Source of the DNA: an uncultured virus (IMG/VR IMGVR_UViG_3300027782_000076)
Lineage: Duplodnaviria; Heunggongvirae; Uroviricota; Caudoviricetes; Crassvirales
Strand: one strand, 5' to 3'
DNA length: 20,000 nucleotides
IMG/VR virus record: IMGVR_UViG_3300027782_000076
The notes under the pieces were generated by a model. That model worked only from the letters and a program-made list of their open reading frames with translations. It ran no database searches and was not told where the DNA came from. The translations under genes and the position numbers were made by a program. Positions 1-12,641 of the stretch are shown in pieces; position 1 is the stretch's first letter; every line of letters starts with the position of its first letter.

Positions 1-356
1 GCCGTCGAGCGCTGAATCGTTTTGTTTACGTCCATCGACGTTAATTTCCCAATTGGAATTGCATTGTTACGAAAGTCCATCACGGGCAGGTAGTCAATAT
101 GCTCGATGTCGTTCACGACGATACCAACCTTAACGTAGGCGGTAGTTCCGTCGGTGAAATAATTTAAGCCCGTGTGGTCGTGCTCGTAAATTTTACGCTG
201 AGCGTTTGGATAGTGGGTCTTTAATAAAGACCAAGCGTTTGCCCAAGACAAGTAGTCAAGGTTTCCCTTGCGCTCAATCTTGTCCTTGATGCTGATTGCT
301 GATAATGTTTTGAATACCTCGTTGGTACTCGAAACTGCTGTTGTGTTTGTCGCCAT
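1..356 (-). CDS. sak: Sak/Rad52-like single-strand annealing protein (DUF1071 / Sak3-like), 3' end off-window
   Basis: Not in the ORF track because there is no stop in the window. Manual translation from ATG at 356: MATNTTAVSSTNEVFKTLSAISIKDKIERKGNLDYLSWANAWSLLKTHYPNA...YLPVMDFRNNAI...DVNKTIQRSTA. The YLSWA.AW, LPVMD.RN and N.TIQR motifs are typical of DUF1071. Confidence 0.85.
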   Translation of the reverse strand, partial: MATNTTAVSSTNEVFKTLSAISIKDKIERKGNLDYLSWANAWSLLKTHYPNAQRKIYEHDHTGLNYFTDGTTAYVKVGIVVNDIEHIDYLPVMDFRNNAIPIGKLTSMDVNKTIQRST

Positions 357-367
357 TTTGTTTTGGA

Positions 368-670
368 TTAAATTGTGATTGAATTTTGAATGTTTTTTAC
401 TAATTTTTTGTAGTCGGCGTCTTGTTTCATCTTGTTTTCAAATGAAGATACGCCCCTATAGATTGTTGACCAACTTGTCTTGTAGCCATTCTCCTTCATA
501 TAGGTATTAATTGTTGCTAAGGGCATCGGTCTTACTGAACATAGATAGTACAATAAGTGCCTTGCGTCTACATACTCCTGAACCTTTGATTTTTTAAATA
601 GGTGCTTTCTCTCTATACGAAATGTCTGAACTACCTTCTCCACACACTCATTAAATATATCTTTTTTCAT
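368..670 (-). CDS. Stand-alone DnaA C-terminal (domain IV)-like HTH DNA-binding protein
   Basis: 100 aa. The pattern KSK.QEYVDARHLLYYLC...PLATI...STIYRGV resembles Bac_DnaA_C (SR..iv.aRq.amYl...sl..Ig...HtTv.ha). Confidence 0.65.
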   Translation of the reverse strand: MKKDIFNECVEKVVQTFRIERKHLFKKSKVQEYVDARHLLYYLCSVRPMPLATINTYMKENGYKTSWSTIYRGVSSFENKMKQDADYKKLVKNIQNSITI

Positions 671-697
671 TGTATTGTAATTAAATTTGATTGTTCA

Positions 698-729
698 CAA
701 ATATACACATTGTGCATTGATTATGCAAT
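698..729 (-). promoter_or_regulatory. Bacteroidota sigma70-type promoter
   Basis: Minus strand ATTG-N20-TATATTTG against the consensus TTTG-N19-21-TAnnTTTG, upstream of the 670 start. Confidence 0.65.
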
Positions 730-1100
730 TATTTGGAAATAAACTTCCTTGCGACTCTGTCCCACAACTCCTCCTCTACCAATTCGAGCGACTTATCTTT
801 GATGATGCTATTCATCTCGTCCGATTGTTCTGCGTCGTTAATCTCGAGCAGGAAATCTCCCGTGATTAAGATTTGGATGTAGAAACCGCCAACGTACCTT
901 ACCACGTCCCTGCAATCGGGTCTGAGCCTTGCGCTTGGGTTGTAGTGTACAAACAACTCTCTCGGTGTTATTCTGCCCGTGTTAATAAACAAATCAAAGC
1001 TCATCTCTCCGTCTTGCATCTTCTGCAGGGTTTGGATGTACAATTTATCGGGCTTGTCCTTTAGTTTTTCCTTCAGGATTTCTTCTGCTACTATGGTCAT
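729..1100 (-). CDS. Hypothetical phage protein
   Basis: 123-aa ORF, ATG start, co-oriented in a densely packed minus-strand operon. Confidence 0.75.
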   Translation of the reverse strand: MTIVAEEILKEKLKDKPDKLYIQTLQKMQDGEMSFDLFINTGRITPRELFVHYNPSARLRPDCRDVVRYVGGFYIQILITGDFLLEINDAEQSDEMNSIIKDKSLELVEEELWDRVARKFISK

Positions 1101-1131
1101 CTTATTTTTACTAAATTGTTAAACAATATTT

Positions 1132-1530
1132 TTATGCGTAAACTACTTCGCCCAATGCAATGTATTGGAATATAACGTCCGAACTTGTGGCGTCTCCGTG
1201 TTCGTTTATTTCGTTTAGGATAGCCCAACTATTATCGTCGGTAGCACACTTTTGCAGTCTTTCACTCATCGTAGTCATACTGATTGTTCCAACTGCGTCC
1301 TCGTCCTCCTCCTCTTCGATGTCGTGTATCTCTACGTCAATGTTGTGGTCGTACACTGCTGAGAATAGAGCCTGACTAAATGGTATACTCCTATCAGGCA
1401 CAACTTCTCTGACTTTCTTAACGGCTTTACCTCCGATAAGATACCAATAATTACTCCCGCCCTCTAATGCGGTTACAAAGATGTCTTCCAAGACTTCTCT
1501 TGTCAATTCAATGTTAATAGATACTTTCAT
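1132..1530 (-). CDS. Conserved hypothetical acidic phage protein (ALEGGSNYW ... DA..sD.ifQ...GEvvY type)
   Basis: 132 aa, A-rich leader, overlaps the upstream stop (ATGA). Confidence 0.8.
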   Translation of the reverse strand: MKVSINIELTREVLEDIFVTALEGGSNYWYLIGGKAVKKVREVVPDRSIPFSQALFSAVYDHNIDVEIHDIEEEEDEDAVGTISMTTMSERLQKCATDDNSWAILNEINEHGDATSSDVIFQYIALGEVVYA

Positions 1531-1715
1531 ATTTGGTTTATTATAAATTTAACTTTTGATTTTGTGTTTGGGTTTAACTCTAATTGCCCTATCGAACACC
1601 ACCCATTTGCCCATTCGAAATTGTTTTCTCCTATCCAAGTTATCTTGCGGAGAACTTTGCCGTGTTCGTTTTGTAAATAAAACAAATCACCTTTGTAAAT
1701 TCCTTTCGTCTTCAT
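1527..1715 (-). CDS. Hypothetical phage protein
   Basis: 62 aa, translationally coupled to both neighbours. Confidence 0.7.
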   Translation of the reverse strand: MKTKGIYKGDLFYLQNEHGKVLRKITWIGENNFEWANGWCSIGQLELNPNTKSKVKFIINQI

Positions 1716-1716
1716 T

Positions 1717-1920
1717 TTATTTTATAGTTAAATGACCTACTTCTATTCCGATGTCTTCTCCGTTTTCCAACGCTTGATTTATTTCAAAAAAGTCTTCGAC
1801 TAAACTTTCGCTATCGTCATCGTGTAAAACATATAATGAAAATAGTCCGCTTTGATAAACTTCTTTGGCTATGTCAGTTACTAAGAACCACACAAAGCCT
1901 TGTACAACTTTTGCTCTCAT
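1717..1920 (-). CDS. Hypothetical phage protein
   Basis: 67 aa, tight packing. Confidence 0.75.
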   Translation of the reverse strand: MRAKVVQGFVWFLVTDIAKEVYQSGLFSLYVLHDDDSESLVEDFFEINQALENGEDIGIEVGHLTIK

Positions 1921-1923
1921 AAT

Positions 1924-2250
1924 TTAGTTTGTTATTGTTTTAGTTATTAAACTCTCGATAATTTCAAACTTCCCGTCCTGAAAGTAAATATCAACGGGAA
2001 AGTCAATGTCAGGTAAGCACAATGTCTGCTCACCGAATAGGTTCATATTCACTGCCCCAAAATCCTCGATAAAGTAATCCTCGATTTCGCTCCAATGGAT
2101 GAGCAACTCGATGTCCACCTCGTTAATTTTTATCTCCACCGAATATATCAATGCAGACTTGTTGTTGACCTCGAACACTTCGAGGTCGATTGTTGGGAAC
2201 TTGTTCTCTTGTACCCAAGAACTCAGCTCCGATAATTTAAATTTTTTCAT
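1924..2250 (-). CDS. Hypothetical acidic phage protein (start revised to 2250)
   Basis: The ATG at 2250 follows the A-rich leader TTAAAAACCAAAACAAACAAACAA. The ORF-track start at 2286 lies inside the hammerhead. Confidence 0.75.
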   Translation of the reverse strand: MKKFKLSELSSWVQENKFPTIDLEVFEVNNKSALIYSVEIKINEVDIELLIHWSEIEDYFIEDFGAVNMNLFGEQTLCLPDIDFPVDIYFQDGKFEIIESLITKTITN

Positions 2251-2275
2251 TTGTTTGTTTGTTTTGGTTTTTAAA

Positions 2276-2329
2276 TCCCGTTTCATCCTTTTGGAATCAT
2301 CAGTCGAGACAACTCATCTCGATACGGGA
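2276..2329 (-). ncRNA. Type III hammerhead ribozyme (HHR-1)
   Basis: Minus strand: UCCCGUA^ UCGAGA-ugaguug-UCUCGA CUGAUGA uUCC-aaaa-GGAu GAA ACGGGA. Complete core, 6-bp stem I, 6-bp stem III, GUA triplet. Predicted cut between 2323 and 2322. Confidence 0.88.
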
Positions 2330-2358
2330 GAGTGTCCTTAAAGACACTCCCGTTTTTT
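2324..2358. terminator. GC-rich hairpin; followed by T6 on the + strand (terminator-like against antisense transcription); overlaps HHR-1 stem III
   Basis: ACGGGAG-AGTGTC-cttaaa-GACACT-CCCGT-TTTTT. Confidence 0.45.
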
Positions 2359-2460
2359 ATGGTCTAAACCTGACGACTTCGGTCTCGGTGAACCAACTAC
2401 AAAAACCCCCGTAATAATAGTGTGCGAACCCCATCGAACCTCAGTCGTTATAATAAAGCA

Positions 2461-2491
2461 CTAAGATAGCATATACATTGCACATATCAAA
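2461..2491 (-). promoter_or_regulatory. Bacteroidota sigma70-type promoter
   Basis: Minus strand TTTG-N19-TATCTTAG (one mismatch to TAnnTTTG). Confidence 0.6.
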
Positions 2492-2497
2492 ATTAAA

Positions 2498-2698
2498 TTA
2501 ATCTTTGTAGCTTGGCTTGATAGCAAAGCACTCAATCATCTCGTCGTGATAGGCGTCAATATTATTGACCTTAGTGAACTCGTTCGCTTGTTGTTTGGTC
2601 TCAAACTCAGCCACCAATCTTTCACTCTTGCACCTATATATTTTGGCGTAATTCGTCGGTACTTCGACCACGCTCCACACAATTTTCTTATTCATCAC
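2498..2698 (-). CDS. Hypothetical phage protein
   Basis: 66 aa, in operon. Confidence 0.7.
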   Translation of the reverse strand: MMNKKIVWSVVEVPTNYAKIYRCKSERLVAEFETKQQANEFTKVNNIDAYHDEMIECFAIKPSYKD

Positions 2699-2891
2699 AG
2701 GCCTCCTTTACTATTTCAAATACTCTGACGCCGTTAACTTCCCTGAACTCAATCGGGTACAACTTGATTAACATTTCTAATTTGTCCTTGAAGAATCCTC
2801 GTCTGCTCTTAGGCAGATAAATCAATCTGTCAATCACCTCTTGCGTCAACTCCCTGCGCTCTTGGTACACATCTACTTTTTGCTCTTGCAT
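2688..2891 (-). CDS. Hypothetical phage protein
   Basis: 67 aa, in operon. Confidence 0.7.
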   Translation of the reverse strand: MQEQKVDVYQERRELTQEVIDRLIYLPKSRRGFFKDKLEMLIKLYPIEFREVNGVRVFEIVKEACDE

Positions 2892-2895
2892 AACT

Positions 2896-3045
2896 TTAGT
2901 TTTTAAGTTTAATTTTAATCATATCCAAAATAAAATTGTCAATGTTCTGCTGTCCCCAACTGCGGGCACCCTCGAACGAATCAAAGTCCTTACGTGCTAC
3001 CTTGTAGGCGTTGTCTTTGTTTAGGTATTCAATGTAAATCTCCAT
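2896..3045 (-). CDS. Small hypothetical phage protein (49 aa, below ORF-track cutoff)
   Basis: MEIYIEYLNKDNAYKVARKDFDSFEGARSWGQQNIDNFILDMIKIKLKN*; exactly fills the gap between its neighbours. Confidence 0.7.
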   Translation of the reverse strand: MEIYIEYLNKDNAYKVARKDFDSFEGARSWGQQNIDNFILDMIKIKLKN

Positions 3046-3046
3046 C

Positions 3047-3235
3047 TTACTTGTTGTTTAGGGTTTCGTCTAATCTATTACACCCGTACGCAACTGCGCC
3101 TAAGGATAAAAACATTGTACACATTAGCACCACCCATTCGAACGGGTTTAAGCTATCTAAAATACTCATCAGGTAGACTATCAGACCTGAATAAGCTAAG
3201 CCTCCTAAGGCTAATAAAATTATTGTTTTTTTCAT
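3047..3235 (-). CDS. Small membrane protein with two predicted TM segments
   Basis: Hydrophobic stretches IILLALGGLAYSGLIVYLMSIL and WVVLMCTMFLSLGAVAYGC. Confidence 0.7.
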   Translation of the reverse strand: MKKTIILLALGGLAYSGLIVYLMSILDSLNPFEWVVLMCTMFLSLGAVAYGCNRLDETLNNK

Positions 3236-3236
3236 C

Positions 3237-3533
3237 TTACTTTCTTTCTAATTGATAAAGTTTTGTCTCAAATTCTTTGGTCATTTCCTCAACGTCGTAA
3301 ACCTTTTCGTTGTCGTCGTCCTCGTAATAATAAATGGGGACACTTATGCTATCGTCCGACGTTTCGTAGCTATCGAATTGATACTTATCGGTGTTAATCA
3401 TATCGCAGTTTATAGACGATATAAACCACATTACCGACCACACCATTCCATTGTCTTCCGCCCATTGTAGGCGCTCTTCCTTTGTTTGCTCGACCATATC
3501 GAATGGCGATGCAAAGATTCTTGTTTCTTTCAT
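3237..3533 (-). CDS. Hypothetical acidic phage protein
   Basis: 98 aa, leader TTAAACCAAACAAAAA-ATG. Confidence 0.75.
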   Translation of the reverse strand: MKETRIFASPFDMVEQTKEERLQWAEDNGMVWSVMWFISSINCDMINTDKYQFDSYETSDDSISVPIYYYEDDDNEKVYDVEEMTKEFETKLYQLERK

Positions 3534-3566
3534 TTTTTGTTTGGTTTAATTAAGCACTATTGCTTG

Positions 3567-3610
3567 GGCTATGCAAGGGACTCGAACCCTTGTTTATACC
3601 ATACATAGCC
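3567..3610 (-). ncRNA. tRNA-like element: acceptor stem plus T-arm, no anticodon arm
   Basis: Minus strand: GGCUAUG-uauGGuauaaa-CAAGGG-UUCGAGU-CCCUUG-CAUAGCC. Perfect 7-bp and 6-bp stems, a canonical TPsiC-type loop, and GG in the linker. Confidence 0.65.
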
Positions 3611-3617
3611 AATCTAA

Positions 3618-3857
3618 TCAATCGTAGTCGGGGAAAAAATCTTCCCAACCATCTGCAATTCCGTTTGTGTTCATTCTGCGCATTGGCTCCTGTCTCTGCT
3701 CCTCCTGTTCGCCTTGCACATCGATAAAATAAATCGTGTCAGGAAATAAATCCTTTAAACTATCCATCTCGATTACCGCCTCGTCGTACGATAAATCACT
3801 TGCCTCGATTTGTGGGTACCCGTCCTCGTCCACGCCACATACTCTGAACTTGTCCAT
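3618..3857 (-). CDS. Hypothetical acidic phage protein (start revised to ATG 3857)
   Basis: MDKFRVCGVDEDGYPQ...; starts 5 nt after the stop of the 3863-4027 ORF. Confidence 0.7.
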   Translation of the reverse strand: MDKFRVCGVDEDGYPQIEASDLSYDEAVIEMDSLKDLFPDTIYFIDVQGEQEEQRQEPMRRMNTNGIADGWEDFFPDYD

Positions 3858-3862
3858 ATCCG

Positions 3863-4027
3863 TTAGTATTTGTCCGTTAAACACTCTCTACGCTCCACCT
3901 TAGACCCGTCAATCGTTAGCGCCATCTTAACTGCGTCGGAACACTTTTTGAACGTGTACATCTGCACAAACTTTCCTAAGCATAGGCAGTCCACTGCCCA
4001 CAACTTAGCCATCTTTAATTTTCTCAT
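3863..4027 (-). CDS. Small hypothetical phage protein (54 aa, below cutoff)
   Basis: MRKLKMAKLWAVDCLCLGKFVQMYTFKKCSDAVKMALTIDGSKVERRECLTDKY*; fills the gap and has an A-rich leader. Confidence 0.6.
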   Translation of the reverse strand: MRKLKMAKLWAVDCLCLGKFVQMYTFKKCSDAVKMALTIDGSKVERRECLTDKY

Positions 4028-4031
4028 TTTT

Positions 4032-4517
4032 TTAGTTTAATTTAATTTTTTCCTCTAATAATATATCTAAGACTTCCAACTCGGACTCGTATTCCACGTC
4101 TCTCCACGAATAGACGTCGGTCTCCTTGTCGTAGTCTTTTATCCAATAGATGTCGGTCTCCTTGTCGTGGTCGATTCTATCAAAGTCCTCACCCTCTAAG
4201 TTCACTACGGACATACCGCCAACGTCACCGATAACGCAACCAAATATTTTACCATCGGTCTCAACGTAGTCGTAGCGATAGTCTAACCCGAATTTTAATG
4301 CAAGTTGGTCGACCTGATAAATATCAGGAGTACCCTCAGTAATGAAATCGACAACACCATCTTCAATAGTCAAATCAAAGCAATACTTTTCTTGTTTGCC
4401 GTCCATCAAATAAATACTATCGTATCTATTTTTGGTCGTTCGAGATTTAATAAATTCTAAGCATTCTGCGACTCTATCTCCTTGAAATAAAATCGTATTG
4501 TAGCAATTGTTCGCCAT
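4032..4517 (-). CDS. YubB/DUF1281-like (ferredoxin-like fold) phage protein
   Basis: N-terminus MANNCYNTILFQG resembles M(A/P)NWC.N...f.G; the later F.T..tP and y.Y.E.....fG pattern also fits. Confidence 0.5.
   Translation of the reverse strand: MANNCYNTILFQGDRVAECLEFIKSRTTKNRYDSIYLMDGKQEKYCFDLTIEDGVVDFITEGTPDIYQVDQLALKFGLDYRYDYVETDGKIFGCVIGDVGGMSVVNLEGEDFDRIDHDKETDIYWIKDYDKETDVYSWRDVEYESELEVLDILLEEKIKLN
4109..4172. repeat. In-frame tandem duplication with 36-nt period
   Basis: AATAGAcGTCGGTCTCCTTGTCGTaGTC (4109-4136) versus AATAGAtGTCGGTCTCCTTGTCGTgGTC (4145-4172); encodes DHDKETDIY / DYDKETDVY. Confidence 0.85.
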
Positions 4518-4523
4518 TTTTTT

Positions 4524-5141
4524 TTAATTATTTAAGTGGTTATTATTAATCAGGTAAAAATTATCGGTCACCTCTTGGTTATCCGTGTCAAACTCCTCGA
4601 TAAGCAAGTCGTAGTTTAACTTATGGGTGTTGCAAAACTTTAAGTAGTTTTTCAACCCTTGCACGTCGTCCAATTCAAAATGCTTATCAGGCAGAATGTT
4701 ACTTGGTCTCTTAGGGTCGTCGCACCTTATCAGGTAGTACATCTCGTATTGATTGCCGTAGTCGTTTATCCACTCGGTAAGCAATTCCCTTGTAACGTAA
4801 CAGGCATCGGGCGTACCATCGAACAATCTTAGCTTGCCGTTCGAATCGTGAGCCATACGCCCTTCCTGCCTCTTATGCAAAATCATTTCGTCTAATACGC
4901 TTTGTAGCTCGTGCTTAGATACCTTAGTTGGCTCGGGGGTATCAATTAGATACGCCCAAGATAACCACACGCTAAGACCATCGTTGTGGTCTCTTCTCGC
5001 AATGTACTTCGCATCGTCTTCCGACTCAGCCTGTACAATACATTTAACCTTCATTAACTCAGGCTCAGCCTTGTCAATGTCTCTCGATGGGTTAACCACT
5101 AACTGCATCGAAACTTCGTACTCTTTTAATTTCTTGTCCAT
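4524..5141 (-). CDS. Hypothetical phage protein
   Basis: 205 aa, A-rich leader. Confidence 0.8.
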   Translation of the reverse strand: MDKKLKEYEVSMQLVVNPSRDIDKAEPELMKVKCIVQAESEDDAKYIARRDHNDGLSVWLSWAYLIDTPEPTKVSKHELQSVLDEMILHKRQEGRMAHDSNGKLRLFDGTPDACYVTRELLTEWINDYGNQYEMYYLIRCDDPKRPSNILPDKHFELDDVQGLKNYLKFCNTHKLNYDLLIEEFDTDNQEVTDNFYLINNNHLNN

Positions 5142-5154
5142 TTTTTTGGTCTCC

Positions 5155-5463
5155 TTATTTTTGATTTAATTTAATTTTTGTCCATAGAATTTCACAACCG
5201 CAACAATTATACACCTCGATTCCGATGTACCCGTCTTTCTCTTTGTATTTAAAGTAATCTCGGCTACGACCTACGCAGTAAACACCTTTGTGACCTATTG
5301 CGTCAGCCTTGTCAATTTGTATCATCTCGGTATCTTGGAAATACTCGATGCCGTCAAACATTCCATTGAACCTTGACTTTGTTTCGACGAATAATTCGTC
5401 TGCATTTTTAATGAACGACTTTAGCGTCGCCATCGTGATTTTTTTGTTTTTTAAATTTTCCAT
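5155..5463 (-). CDS. Conserved hypothetical phage protein (ITmATlKSFIk ... VG.SRDyF ... GIEVyNcCG)
   Basis: 102 aa, starts 22 nt downstream of HHR-2. Confidence 0.8.
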   Translation of the reverse strand: MENLKNKKITMATLKSFIKNADELFVETKSRFNGMFDGIEYFQDTEMIQIDKADAIGHKGVYCVGRSRDYFKYKEKDGYIGIEVYNCCGCEILWTKIKLNQK

Positions 5464-5485
5464 TTTTTTATGGGTTTAAGGGGTT

Positions 5486-5538
5486 TGCCGTTTCGTCCTT
5501 TTGGACTCATCAGGTGGGACACTCATCCCACGACGTCA
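5486..5538 (-). ncRNA. Type III hammerhead ribozyme (HHR-2)
   Basis: Minus strand: UGaCGUC^ GUGGGA-ugagug-UCCCAC CUGAUGA GUCC-aaaa-GGAC GAA ACGgCA. Canonical core, G10.1-C11.1 pair, GUC triplet. Predicted cut between 5532 and 5531. Confidence 0.92.
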
Positions 5539-5559
5539 GGAGCGCCTGAGCGCCCCTGA
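5536..5559 (-). other. GC-rich 10-bp hairpin directly 5' of HHR-2
   Basis: Minus strand UCAGGGGCGC-ucag-GCGCUCCUGA with no U-tract; begins 5 nt after the stop of the 5565-5969 gene. Confidence 0.7.
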
Positions 5560-5564
5560 TTTGA

Positions 5565-5969
5565 TTACTCTATCGGGTGAACTTTAATATCATTCTCAAC
5601 CAATTGCTGAAACCAATTTTTCAACTCTAAATCAGCGACGTATATCCACGTCGACACCTCACGGGATAGGGCGTTGGTGCTACGCGCCCTGACGTTGCCC
5701 TTGCGATTCAATGTTACTTCGTAATTACCGATTATTACTTTAAGTTTCTCTTGCTGATGTTTGTTAGCGTGGTTCGGATTGTTAAAGTAAAGTAAATGGT
5801 ATTTGTACTCCTCAATTTGGTATTGATAGGTATATAAATTCTCACCTACTTCGGCAAAGTTTTCTAAGAAATTTGCGTTCAATAATTTTTGCAAATCTTT
5901 AACCTTGTACTCCAAATATTTAATTTGGTTTGTTACTTCTGATGCGATGTCGTTGATGTCTCTTCTCAT
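5565..5969 (-). CDS. Hypothetical phage protein with N-terminal coiled coil
   Basis: 134 aa, leader TTAAACCAAAAAAAAA-ATG. Confidence 0.75.
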   Translation of the reverse strand: MRRDINDIASEVTNQIKYLEYKVKDLQKLLNANFLENFAEVGENLYTYQYQIEEYKYHLLYFNNPNHANKHQQEKLKVIIGNYEVTLNRKGNVRARSTNALSREVSTWIYVADLELKNWFQQLVENDIKVHPIE

Positions 5970-6013
5970 TTTTTTTTGGTTTAAATTGTTTCTGATTAAA
6001 TTGATTAAATTGA

Positions 6014-6295
6014 TTATAATTCCTTAACTAAATACTTGTCGTACAACTCTTCCTTGTTCGGTTGTCCTGATACCCAATTGATGTACAGGTAAGGGTCGAC
6101 GCCATTGCTTAGGATGTGCTTAGCCGTTAGGATTTTGATGTCCTTAAAGTCGTAATCCATATCCTCGATATCGTACTTCGAGTAGTACAAAATATCTTCC
6201 TTGTCCGTTCCCTTGTAGTCCCATCCATTTACGATGATGAACGTGCCTTTAAGCACTGCAAAGTGCGTGTACTTTTTTGTTGCTTTGTGTTTCAT
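6014..6295 (-). CDS. Hypothetical phage protein, first gene of the leftward operon
   Basis: 93 aa, directly downstream of the promoter candidate at 6334-6364. Confidence 0.8.
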   Translation of the reverse strand: MKHKATKKYTHFAVLKGTFIIVNGWDYKGTDKEDILYYSKYDIEDMDYDFKDIKILTAKHILSNGVDPYLYINWVSGQPNKEELYDKYLVKEL

Positions 6296-6333: not shown

Positions 6334-6364
6334 GCAATTTACATGCAATACTATTAATATCAAA
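6334..6364 (-). promoter_or_regulatory. Candidate leftward (early) promoter
   Basis: Minus strand TTTG-N19-TAAATTGC (variant -7 box); shares TTTTGATAT with the 2461-2491 promoter. Confidence 0.5.
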
Positions 6365-6783
6365 ATATTATTTACTTTTTTATTCACTTATTTTAAAAAC
6401 TCAATGTTTATGCGGGTTTCAGGGGCGCTCAAGTGATCAAAATTTGTAGTGTTTTGGGTGGTGCAGTAATAACCGCCTTTCTGCGTCTACCTGATAGTTT
6501 TTTTGTCCTGTGTTCACATTCATATTACCTGAGAGCAGTGCCTTGCGATGTGTCGAATGCGATGCGCAGAGCCACACAAATCACCTGCACCCAATCGACT
6601 CTACCTGAGTGCTGCGAACCACTCATTCAGGCTCAGGATGCCCACAGGAAAACGCCAAAAAATCCGAGGCGCTCGAGGGAAATCCTGACCCCCCCCCTGC
6701 AAAAAAAAATCGTTTCCGTCGCGGGGGTCGGCTCGCCAAACCGCTATATAGCCCAAACACTACTATCATCTGATATTTTTTTA

Positions 6784-8731: not shown

Positions 8732-10348
8732 ATGCAAACAGAAAATTTAGGGTACTCCCCGAAGAACTTACAGTTCGACGAGCAGGGTAGGGAAAAATTA
8801 GCTAATGGTGTTAAGCTGATGGCGAAGGCTGTCAAGAGCACATTAGGTCCAAGTGGAAACACGGTGCTAATTGAATCACCAAATCACACACACGGTATTA
8901 CGGTAACAAAGGACGGGGTAACAGTAGCAAAGTCTATTGACCTGTTAGACCCTGTAGAAAACCTTGCGGTTAAGATTATGAAGGAGGCGGCAGACAGAAC
9001 TGCTACGAGTGCCGGTGACGGTACGACCACTGCAATTGTGCTAACCGAGGCTTTAGTAATAAATGGTCTTAACTTAATTAACGAGGGTTACAACAGAACA
9101 GAAGTATTAAGAGCGTTATCGGACATAACCACTAAGGTGGTGGACAAGTTGGTTAAAAAAAGTAAGAAGGTAAGTAACGCAATGTTGTCCGATGTGGCAA
9201 CTATATCAGCAAACAACGACAAGGAGATAGGTAAGATTATCTCTGAGGTATATAAAGAGGTTGGTAAGAACGGTATCGTGACCGTCGAGAGGTCGCAGAC
9301 TGCGGACACCTATGCTGAAACCACTAAGGGATTAAAGATTGAGAGAGGTTACTCGTCTCAGCTGTTTATCAATAACCAAAAGAAGGACGAGTGTATATTT
9401 GAGGACGTGATGGTAATGGTAGCAGATGTGGACATTAGTAACATCTTGCAGATTGAGAACGTATTAAAACCAATTATATCTGAGGGTAAAAAATTACTAA
9501 TCATTGCACCGTGCTCTACCAATGTGGTTAACACTATTGCCGCTAACGTAATGAAGAACAACTTAAAGATATGCACAATTCAACCACCGAACTTTGGGTA
9601 CAAGCAACACGAGCTGATGCAAGATATTGCTATTAGCGTCGGAGCCACGTACTTCAGCGAGAAAACCGGAGATGATTTGTCTCATATCAGTTACGCTGAT
9701 TTAGGTCACGCAAGTAGAGTAATTGTTGGTAGAGACAGCACGGTACTTGTTAAGTCAACTGCAAAGGCGGACGAAACATTAATTGCTGAGCGCGTTGCAC
9801 AGCTGTGGGATGCTTACGCAATGGCAAAGAGAAAGACGGACAAGGACTTTATCTTAGAGAGAATCGCATCACTCACGGGTGGTGTTGGTGTAATCTACGT
9901 CGGTGGTAACACTGACTTGGAGCAGAAGGAATTATTCGATAGAGTAGACGACGCGGTATGCGCGGTACGTTCAGCCTTGGAGGAGGGAATATTGTCGGGA
10001 GCGGGTAAGGCATTGTACGAGATTAACTGCTCAGAGTTTTTAACAGAAGATGCATCTGACGAATATAAGATTGCGAGTTTAATTATTCAACTTGCAATTG
10101 AGTCACCACTAAAACAAATATTAACTAATGCAGGATTAAGTTCTGAAGATATTTATAGCGGTGAGAAAAAAGAAGGTTGGGGCTATAACCTGAAAGATGG
10201 TAAGATGGGAGATTTAATTTCGATGGGTGTTATTGACCCATTAAAGGTAACGAGAAGCGCACTACAGAATGCAGTCTCAGTTGCAATAACTATACTAAGT
10301 ACGAATGCTATCATTACGATGTCAAGGACGTATGAAGCAGGTTCTTAA
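8732..10348 (+). CDS. groEL: Phage-encoded chaperonin GroEL (Cpn60)
   Basis: 538 aa. AVKSTLGPSG, VTKDGVTVAK, AGDGTTTA, VATISAN, ERIASLTGGV, RVDDA...AL.EEG, GVIDPLKVTRSALQNAVS. Confidence 0.97.
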   Translation: MQTENLGYSPKNLQFDEQGREKLANGVKLMAKAVKSTLGPSGNTVLIESPNHTHGITVTKDGVTVAKSIDLLDPVENLAVKIMKEAADRTATSAGDGTTTAIVLTEALVINGLNLINEGYNRTEVLRALSDITTKVVDKLVKKSKKVSNAMLSDVATISANNDKEIGKIISEVYKEVGKNGIVTVERSQTADTYAETTKGLKIERGYSSQLFINNQKKDECIFEDVMVMVADVDISNILQIENVLKPIISEGKKLLIIAPCSTNVVNTIAANVMKNNLKICTIQPPNFGYKQHELMQDIAISVGATYFSEKTGDDLSHISYADLGHASRVIVGRDSTVLVKSTAKADETLIAERVAQLWDAYAMAKRKTDKDFILERIASLTGGVGVIYVGGNTDLEQKELFDRVDDAVCAVRSALEEGILSGAGKALYEINCSEFLTEDASDEYKIASLIIQLAIESPLKQILTNAGLSSEDIYSGEKKEGWGYNLKDGKMGDLISMGVIDPLKVTRSALQNAVSVAITILSTNAIITMSRTYEAGS

Positions 10349-12049: not shown

Positions 12050-12387
12050 TGGGTACCAACAAACCTGAATATATGCATTCGTGGAGGGAGAGGAATAGGA
12101 ATAAGGTTGTTGGTTATGAAAGGAAGCGCTATGAAAAGAGGAAGTATAGCAAGTATGGTATAACAAAAGAAATACTTAACCAAATATTACTCGAACAGAA
12201 TAACAAGTGTTATATTTGCAGCACTGAATTTACAGAGTCGGTTAAGTTAAACATAGACCACTGCCACACAACAATGAAAGTTAGAGGACTACTCTGCATT
12301 AATTGTAATTTAGGGGTTGGTCACTTTAAAGATAACATTGAACTGTTACAAAGCGCAATAGAATATATAATCAAATCAAAATTATGA
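12049..12387 (+). CDS. Endonuclease VII-family (His-Me finger) nuclease
   Basis: KYGIT...QNNKCYIC...NIDHCHTTMKVRGLLCINCNLGVGHFKDN..LLQSAIEY. Confidence 0.9.
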   Translation: MGTNKPEYMHSWRERNRNKVVGYERKRYEKRKYSKYGITKEILNQILLEQNNKCYICSTEFTESVKLNIDHCHTTMKVRGLLCINCNLGVGHFKDNIELLQSAIEYIIKSKL

Positions 12388-12641
12388 AAGCAATCGGCAA
12401 GAATATCATCATTACAATCGTAGACGAAGAGGTTACTACCTCGTCAGGGATATTATTATCAGGCGAAGACGCCAATCAACTAAGATATAAAAGAGGAATT
12501 GTTAAGGCTGCGGGTACAGACGTATCAGCAATTGCAGAAGGCGACGAAATTTACTATGACAAAGGTCACGGTTACACGATGGTGATACACAATGAGCAGT
12601 ATAGCATCATCCAAGAGCGTGACGTTGTCGTAGTATTATAA
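12384..12641 (+). CDS. groES: Phage-encoded co-chaperonin GroES (Cpn10)
   Basis: 85 aa. Mobile loop EVTTSSGILL, G.VKAAG, EGDEIYY, IIQERDVVVVL. Confidence 0.88.
   Translation: MKAIGKNIIITIVDEEVTTSSGILLSGEDANQLRYKRGIVKAAGTDVSAIAEGDEIYYDKGHGYTMVIHNEQYSIIQERDVVVVL

Follow-up and report, generated by a model that had tools for sequence, protein, structure and literature searches.

A hammerhead ribozyme of an uncultured tailed phage as a member of a recurrent intergenic cassette with a predicted role in mRNA punctuation

The hammerhead HHR-2, which lies between two small leftward genes in a 20,000-nucleotide stretch of DNA from an uncultured virus (hereafter, the window), is probably a copy of a standard, constitutive phage cassette for mRNA punctuation that would cap the upstream message, cut the transcript and give the downstream message a fresh 5′ end. 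Judging from the sequence and from folding models, we assign this reading, the predicted cleavage included, a probability of roughly 0.7. The cassette runs from a stop codon over ~5–7 nt to a GC-rich hairpin, followed by 4–6 nt ending in the triplet, a type III hammerhead, an A-rich leader and a start codon. Our comparisons establish this anatomy and show that it recurs with hairpins of unrelated sequence, that its stems covary and that it survives swaps of the flanking genes. The family geometry, with a cap hairpin 4–6 nt before the cut and ~5–7 nt past the stop and the next start ~27 nt downstream of the core (the family median), is a measurable rule, which allows direct tests of the mRNA-processing idea. 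The HHR-2 locus itself is an ordinary member, and its value lies in the family geometry and the natural alleles.

An earlier note on this DNA had called a hammerhead ribozyme with a canonical core, a GUC triplet and canonical stems I and II, and this call holds, with all of these elements found in their places (Table 1). HHR-2 agrees with the core consensus of type III hammerheads (C3 U4 G5 A6 N7 G8 A9, G12 A13 A14 A15, U16, H17; as given in the methods of PMC3088659, available text), its stems I and II are closed by loops while stem III is open, and the pairs adjoining the core are G-C, G-C and A-U, none of them mispaired. Loop I (UGAGUG) and loop II (AAAA) agree with the two halves, U-Nm-Y-N and R-Nm-A, of the tertiary loop-loop motif given in the text to Fig. 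S5 in the accessible part of PMC3088659. The first base of loop I is U in 128 of the 128 members of modal length among the matches listed, while the last A of loop II is fixed by most search patterns and its conservation is thus no test. Stem III was likewise seen as described, with three pairs (U5533-A5491, G5534-C5490, C5535-G5489), the mismatch A5536.G5488 and two further pairs (G5537-C5487, U5538-A5486), and UGA 5538-5536 does double as the closing bases of the 10-bp hairpin, which starts 5 nt after the stop codon. This hairpin has a modelled energy of −19.1 kcal/mol (z −4.8), and none of 200 shuffles was equally stable.

Table 1 Features of the HHR-2 region and the second hammerhead cassette, in window coordinates.
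Feature	Position	Strand	Details
Upstream ORF, 134 aa, no assigned function	5565..5969	-	stop UAA 5567-5565; no Pfam match; one weak PHROG match, E 0.0015
Spacer, 5 nt, predicted to be shielded by the terminating ribosome	5560..5564	-	family-wide short spacing; channel length from PMC7282821 (available text)
10-bp hairpin, loop UCAG	5536..5559	-	arms 5559-5550/5545-5536, one G.U
Stem III 5′ strand and GUC triplet (5534-5532)	5532..5538	-	predicted cut 5532/5531; A5536 is the mismatch
Stem I, loop UGAGUG	5514..5531	-	5531-5526/5519-5514, 6 Watson-Crick pairs, 7th U.G possible
Catalytic core CUGAUGA	5507..5513	-	
Stem II, 4 bp, loop AAAA	5495..5506	-	arms 5506-5503/5498-5495
GAAA core (5494-5491) and stem III 3′ strand	5486..5494	-	
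A-rich leader without Shine-Dalgarno-like site	5464..5485	-	start codon 27 nt past GAAA; family median 27
Downstream ORF, 102 aa, no assigned function	5155..5463	-	orthologs: L160 (with cassette), L159 (without)
HHR-1 cassette, same build	2275..2351	-	hairpin from 2351; GUA; U.U at stem II base; 6-pair stem III

The Rfam model RF00008 matched positions 5539-5485 (-) with 42.4 bits (E 2.2e-6), which is below the gathering score of 48.5 bits. This is an effect of the subfamily, because relatives with sound stems score 34–48 bits, and all 13 RF00008 matches in that set fall below the cut-off. HHR-2 shares with the type III members of RF00008 (clan CL00010) the topology, the core bases, GUC, the three stems and the loop motif, and differs from the model in its 3-pair stem III, its 4-nt loop II, its intergenic phage site and a hairpin that lies outside the model. 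Rfam models at E values up to 5 revealed no other ribozyme classes in the window, and cultured phage records contained no hammerhead match, with five short matches covering the ORF end and the hairpin. HHR-2 is a genuine and unexceptional phage hammerhead of type III within a cassette that is common, and it is predicted to cleave.

The window appears to be a segment of a tailed phage genome. The leftward run of small genes annotated without functions (1-6295) ends in a Sak-like annealing protein, and the rightward arm encodes GroEL (8732-10348 (+)), whose best match in a search of 50,697 phage records was an uncultured Caudoviricetes record at 63.6%. An 85-aa ORF at 12384-12641 (+) is GroES-like by eye. 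Most leftward start codons follow A-rich leaders without a Shine-Dalgarno-like site, from which we infer a putative host among the Bacteroidota. No relatives of the 134-aa upstream protein were found in viral contigs.

Core-pattern scans yielded at least 154 type III hits in 278 sequences, corresponding to 132 unique and 117 non-redundant hits, of which 115 had 70 nt upstream and 88 belonged to the subfamily. This set of 88 includes both hammerheads of the window, and type I/II and non-matching pattern hits were left out. As the members are kindred and were chosen by core patterns, the counts do not represent independent events. A hairpin of ≤−10 kcal/mol ending ≤12 nt from the cut was found in 70 of the 88 viral members among the matches listed, whereas dinucleotide shuffles reached 22.6% and upstream segments 34 of 335. 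The 27 type III members outside the subfamily contained such a hairpin in 19 cases, versus 36.8% of shuffles (among the matches listed). When the four cut-site bases were held free, a hairpin of ≤−8 kcal/mol was present in 73/88 members; its 3′ end was located 4–6 nt before the product end in 69 of these 73, and it was flush with stem III or had 1–2 bases in common with it in 62 members, in each case among the matches listed. A separate metagenome scan added 72 new members, 36 of them with a hairpin (9.7% of shuffles), and this set is a weaker but clear repeat of the enrichment; its stop-to-hairpin spacers measured 1–12 nt in 22/39 and >12 nt in 14/39 cases. Four loci (L168, L228, L237 and L272) had no strong hairpin and instead carried, in the same place, a common upstream motif (ATCCT...) with a 5-bp stem and an 11–13 nt loop, which is a second kind of end element. 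Matches to the core pattern also occurred in a 242-kb contig and in records of fewer than 500 bases (L008, L011, L219, L224).

The hairpin sequences vary widely between members, and G.U exceeds A.C in the hairpin arms (79 vs 45, p = 0.003). An inverted repeat at such a position might also act as an opposite-strand terminator or as a DNA binding site. The HHR-2 dyad is then followed by 5 T in 8 nt on the plus strand, the hairpin of HHR-1 scores terminator-like on that strand, and a GTGTC-N-GACAC palindrome, which is absent from HHR-2, recurs in 38/160 family hairpins and also stands alone in relatives. However, an A.C mismatch interrupts the HHR-2 stem on the plus strand, and the terminator listing does not include it; the matching G.U is kept in all four orthologous cassettes described below, and G002-G004 each contain a single copy of the HHR-2 dyad. 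Among the matches listed, ≥6 A preceded the hairpin in only 5 of 73 viral members, and ≥5 U followed it in 3 of 73. This makes a function of the dyad at the DNA level or on the opposite strand extremely unlikely. On the minus strand the hairpin is followed by CGUC, and no intrinsic terminator was listed at HHR-2 on either strand. A bias of folding toward the sense strand, considered as a means to distinguish the strands, was of no use, as 92 vs 65 of 160 members were matched by 92 vs 62 of 155 controls. An inverted copy of the 5′ arm and loop of the HHR-2 hairpin (5540-5559) is located at 6419-6438 (+), 859 nt away, with 13 nt exact and 20 nt at 85%. Long-range opening of the hairpin by this copy was rejected, since the copy is absent from G002-G004 and lies upstream of a promoter-like block near 6364; it is a chance match or a recombination relic.

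The distance to the stop codon was also constrained. Among the matches listed, 69 had a hairpin as well as an upstream ORF that reached ≥45 codons; the spacer comprised 1–12 nt in 53 of these 69 and 0 nt or less in three. Hammerhead-followed stops had a hairpin in 99 of 137 cases, starting at 4–9 nt in 67 of the 99, while at other stops of the same loci a hairpin was found in 46 of 287 cases and started at 4–9 nt in 17 of the 46 (Fisher p = 6e-4 for the 4–9 nt spacer, with heuristic ORF calls and some overlapping loci). Counted from the first P-site base, the bacterial mRNA channel takes up a further 11 nt (PMC7282821, available text). If UAA occupies the A site, position 5570 becomes +1, so that the first base of the HHR-2 hairpin (5559) is +12, i.e., at the entrance and outside the channel. 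Position 5559 is also +9 from the first base of the stop, where the outside-ribosome folding window of Chemla et al. 2020 opens (accessible text of PMC7518266). A terminating ribosome could thus open one hairpin pair at most, and we read the spacing as the shortest that keeps the hairpin folded.

Such a position would also suit a hairpin directed at the ribosome itself, which as a termination structure would block re-initiation or slow termination and thereby insulate the downstream gene. The termination structure of Chemla et al. 2020 resembles HHR-2 in placing a stable structure at the edge of the terminating ribosome, and such ribosome-edge structures were found to insulate translation when placed in a synthetic operon in E. 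coli; on the other hand, theirs is a statistical signal with a re-initiation test in a synthetic operon and no ribozyme (PMC7518266, as far as its text was available). A-site binding is hindered by some hairpins that lie 11–12 nt beyond the codon in the P site (PMC7282821, available portions), and the distance is 11 nt here; ribosome pausing, however, is limited to stem-loops of a particular build. Moreover, the hairpin is tied more tightly by its 3′ end to the cut (69/73 within 4–6 nt) than by its 5′ end to the stop (53/69 within 1–12 nt; both among the matches listed), and the two genes are on separate RNAs once cleavage has taken place. Insulation as the role of the hairpin seems quite unlikely to us, and the two readings, insulation and mRNA punctuation, are not exclusive.

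According to the punctuation reading, transcription of the leftward operon would let the hairpin fold first and remain folded, stem III would form flush beside it, and the ribozyme would cut after C5532. The upstream message would then end in a 3′ hairpin with a 4-nt tail, slowing 3′ exonucleases, and the downstream message would begin with a 5′-OH and the stem I hairpin, 68 nt before the start codon. The hairpin would escape melting because the spacer sets it just beyond the terminating ribosome. Model folds of the two products contain the 3′-terminal hairpin on the upstream and the 5′-terminal stem I hairpin on the downstream piece. Hairpins at the 3′ end and 5′-OH ends slow RNA decay, and in the RNase III processing of phage T7 transcripts the upstream piece keeps a stabilizing 3′ hairpin. 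The cassette would resemble the RNase III sites of the T7 early mRNA, at which intergenic cuts divide a long early transcript (PMC5371410, available text), but it would be self-cleaving, need no host enzyme and leave 2′,3′-cyclic phosphate and 5′-OH ends.

The accessible text of Perreault 2011 (PMC3088659) describes clustered phage hammerheads, for which the processing of long transcripts into gene-length messages was proposed; cleavage was shown for three clusters, and variants with U.U in stem II were active. The window resembles these clusters in its two copies 3.2 kb apart within one leftward run of small genes, as well as in the weak stem III and the nearby next start codon. The available main text of that paper mentions neither a hairpin fixed 4–6 nt ahead of the cleavage site nor the distance to the stop codon, and its alignment supplement may bear on both. 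Within the literature on phage hammerheads covered by our search, which mostly excluded subscription papers, no description of the layout was found, and one may be in print. The role of hammerheads in bacteria and phages is still considered open (PMC6765202 and PMC6155905, available parts).

Among the matches listed, the contiguous stem III comprises 4–6 pairs in 82/88 members, and HHR-2 is the only 3-pair member there; in the wider set of 160 members, four had ≤3 contiguous pairs. The fourth position of stem III is C-G in 138/160 members and A.G in two. Weak stems III are described as very common (Perreault 2011, PMC3088659, available text). A search with the core of the hairpin gave 75 matches, three of them followed by a hammerhead, namely L445, L425 and L466 (the L160 site). 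L445 also carries A.G, in contrast to the C-G of L425 and L160. The A of the A.G alleles pairs instead with the U at the 5′ base of the hairpin, so that one pair has been shifted across the junction from stem III to the hairpin, probably in a single event.

The four orthologous cassettes had 97.8% of their cells paired, and five pairs were changed on both sides across these four related rows (three in stem I, one in stem II and one in stem III). Nine inner pairs of the hairpin were kept in 4/4 cassettes, and one pair varied between A-U, G.U and G-C. The gene upstream of the cassette encodes 309–310 aa in three relatives and is replaced by the unrelated 134-aa gene in the window. Despite this swap the stop-to-cassette distance stayed within 1 nt, and the downstream genes are of two kinds. 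The 309–310 aa protein had no Pfam match; we assume a likeness to amidoligases. G001 and G004 are one and the same record, and this record, G002 and G003 all contain both hammerheads. In contrast, L159/G005 carries a 90% ortholog of the downstream gene with no hammerhead, and an RF00008 search of G005 found nothing, so this relative can do without the cassette. The L159 ortholog is preceded by a hammerhead-like word, which was rejected because it lies within a short reading frame (by eye) and has no RF00008 match in G005.

The A.G allele of HHR-2 probably cleaves more slowly or partially compared to L160 and L425, because the hairpin has taken over one pair of stem III and, in the model, a misfold of the core competes. 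Since the natural alleles (the window and L445 vs L160 and L425) differ exactly at the pair in question, they form a ready comparison set. In the extreme case, HHR-2 would be a decaying copy, with an A.G allele too slow to matter and the hairpin alone still working. The rarity of both the allele and such short stems III in the family and a misfold 2.6 kcal/mol under the active fold are in line with decay. However, L445, with different genes on both sides, has the same allele and an intact core; the window and L445 have common stem pairs, compensatorily different from those of L160 and L425; and the core and loop-loop bases of HHR-2 are all intact. Rates of more than 100 per minute are also reached by natural hammerheads of type III when loop contacts are present (PMC6155905, available text), which leaves room for loss. 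We consider decay unlikely.

The folding model (ViennaRNA) covers secondary structure and has no tertiary terms. Its lowest-energy fold for HHR-2 is inactive, with 5535-5532 pairing with core positions 5508-5511, a feature that the earlier note had missed. The modelled energies are −34.6 kcal/mol for the intact hairpin with three stem III pairs, −29.4 for a 7-pair hairpin with 3+2 pairs, and −37.2 for the misfold, which thus appears as the chief rival of the active fold in the model. Forming the active fold costs, relative to the ensemble, 5.16 kcal/mol with 60 nt upstream (rank 79/88 among the matches listed, at a family median of 2.3 kcal/mol), 3.67 from the stop on and 2.85 without the hairpin. 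From the stop on, L445 pays 3.89, L425 1.59 and L160 0.82 kcal/mol. An active fold 3.7–5.2 kcal/mol above the ensemble, calculated without tertiary contacts, runs counter to the punctuation reading in that HHR-2 may be a poor ribozyme. Coaxial stacking, considered as a help to the active fold, brought no gain in ViennaRNA. The suggestion that the weak stem III favours product release is reasonable, because stem III alone holds both products together (−1.7 kcal/mol as a duplex), but short stems III are the family norm.

The same note had also proposed that a ribosome terminating on the upstream gene unfolds the hairpin and so modulates cleavage. Such a switch would free UGA 5538-5536, lengthen stem III and speed up cleavage. 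The UGA overlap is real, the short stop-to-hairpin spacing near the ribosome edge is conserved family-wide, and covering 8 nt past the stop lowered the cost from 3.67 to 2.93 kcal/mol, with this step gaining >1 kcal/mol in 27/78 members. Yet the effect of masking was non-monotonic, with 3.60, 2.93, 4.89 and 4.24 kcal/mol at 5, 8, 10 and 12 nt, and a channel reaching 11 nt past +1 covers ~5 nt after the stop (PMC7282821, available text), where the gain was 0.07 kcal/mol. According to the model, the whole hairpin is worth ~0.8 kcal/mol (~4-fold) to the active fold, of which a terminating ribosome would reach 0.07. No switch helix was located within the stretch unwound by the ribosome, as the hairpin starts at +12. 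The two distal stem III pairs, gained at the expense of the hairpin, cost 5.2 kcal/mol, which also speaks against a trade-off between hairpin and stem III. Mutually exclusive pairing is not conserved in the homologs; L160 and L425 keep the hairpin together with a sound C-G stem III, and at costs of 0.8 and 1.6 kcal/mol these alleles need no rescue. Across 117 members, the stem III strand showed no enrichment, relative to shuffles, of pairing with the spacer or the base of the hairpin (p = 0.15); a displacement of stem III by the flank of the hairpin, built into the RNA, was rejected for the same reason. A ribosome-operated switch is hence very unlikely, and the hairpin overlap is not good evidence for one but a by-product of the flush junction and one substitution.

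A small indirect effect of translation on HHR-2 cleavage may exist. Masking the coding sequence lowered the HHR-2 cost by 1.5 kcal/mol through the removal of another weak pairing. Masking up to stop+5 gave a median gain of 0.9 kcal/mol in 78 members and >1 in 32, where removal of upstream sequence is in general expected to help. A family-wide coupling, in which the ribosome would clear upstream mispairing sequence without melting the hairpin and marginal alleles would be cut mainly on translated messages, is a rather unlikely extrapolation from the model. If true, it would represent a natural translation-sensing ribozyme with a tunable uncut fraction.

HHR-1, the second hammerhead of the window, matched RF00008 at 2330-2275 (-) with 34.2 bits, also below 48.5. 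Across the 160 members, U.U goes with GUA (57/66) and a paired base with GUC (75/94), possibly by shared descent, and the HHR-1 ortholog in G002 combines G-C with GUA. The HHR-1 cassette is located 5 nt past the stop of a 25-aa ORF remnant (2434-2357), whose end matches that of the 362–364 aa GATase/GGACT gene preceding HHR-1 in G001-G003. This gene seems to have been deleted in the window, leaving the hammerhead cassette and its stop spacing behind. The 20-kb window contains a single GTGTC-N6-GACAC palindrome (2332-2347), as against 3–4 copies in the 6.6–8 kb early regions of G001-G003 (L508, L509, L510), where it often lies just past stops and lacks a hammerhead. The operon of G001-G003 starts with a 212–216 aa gene, which is missing from the window operon. 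Promoter-like blocks were noticed in the window at 6364-6334 (-), 2491-2460 (-) and 6784 (+), which we take to resemble the Bacteroidota promoter consensus. Two of these blocks start with TTTGATAT, followed by 19 nt to a TA-rich octamer, and the block at 6364-6334 (-) is kept in G003 and G004.
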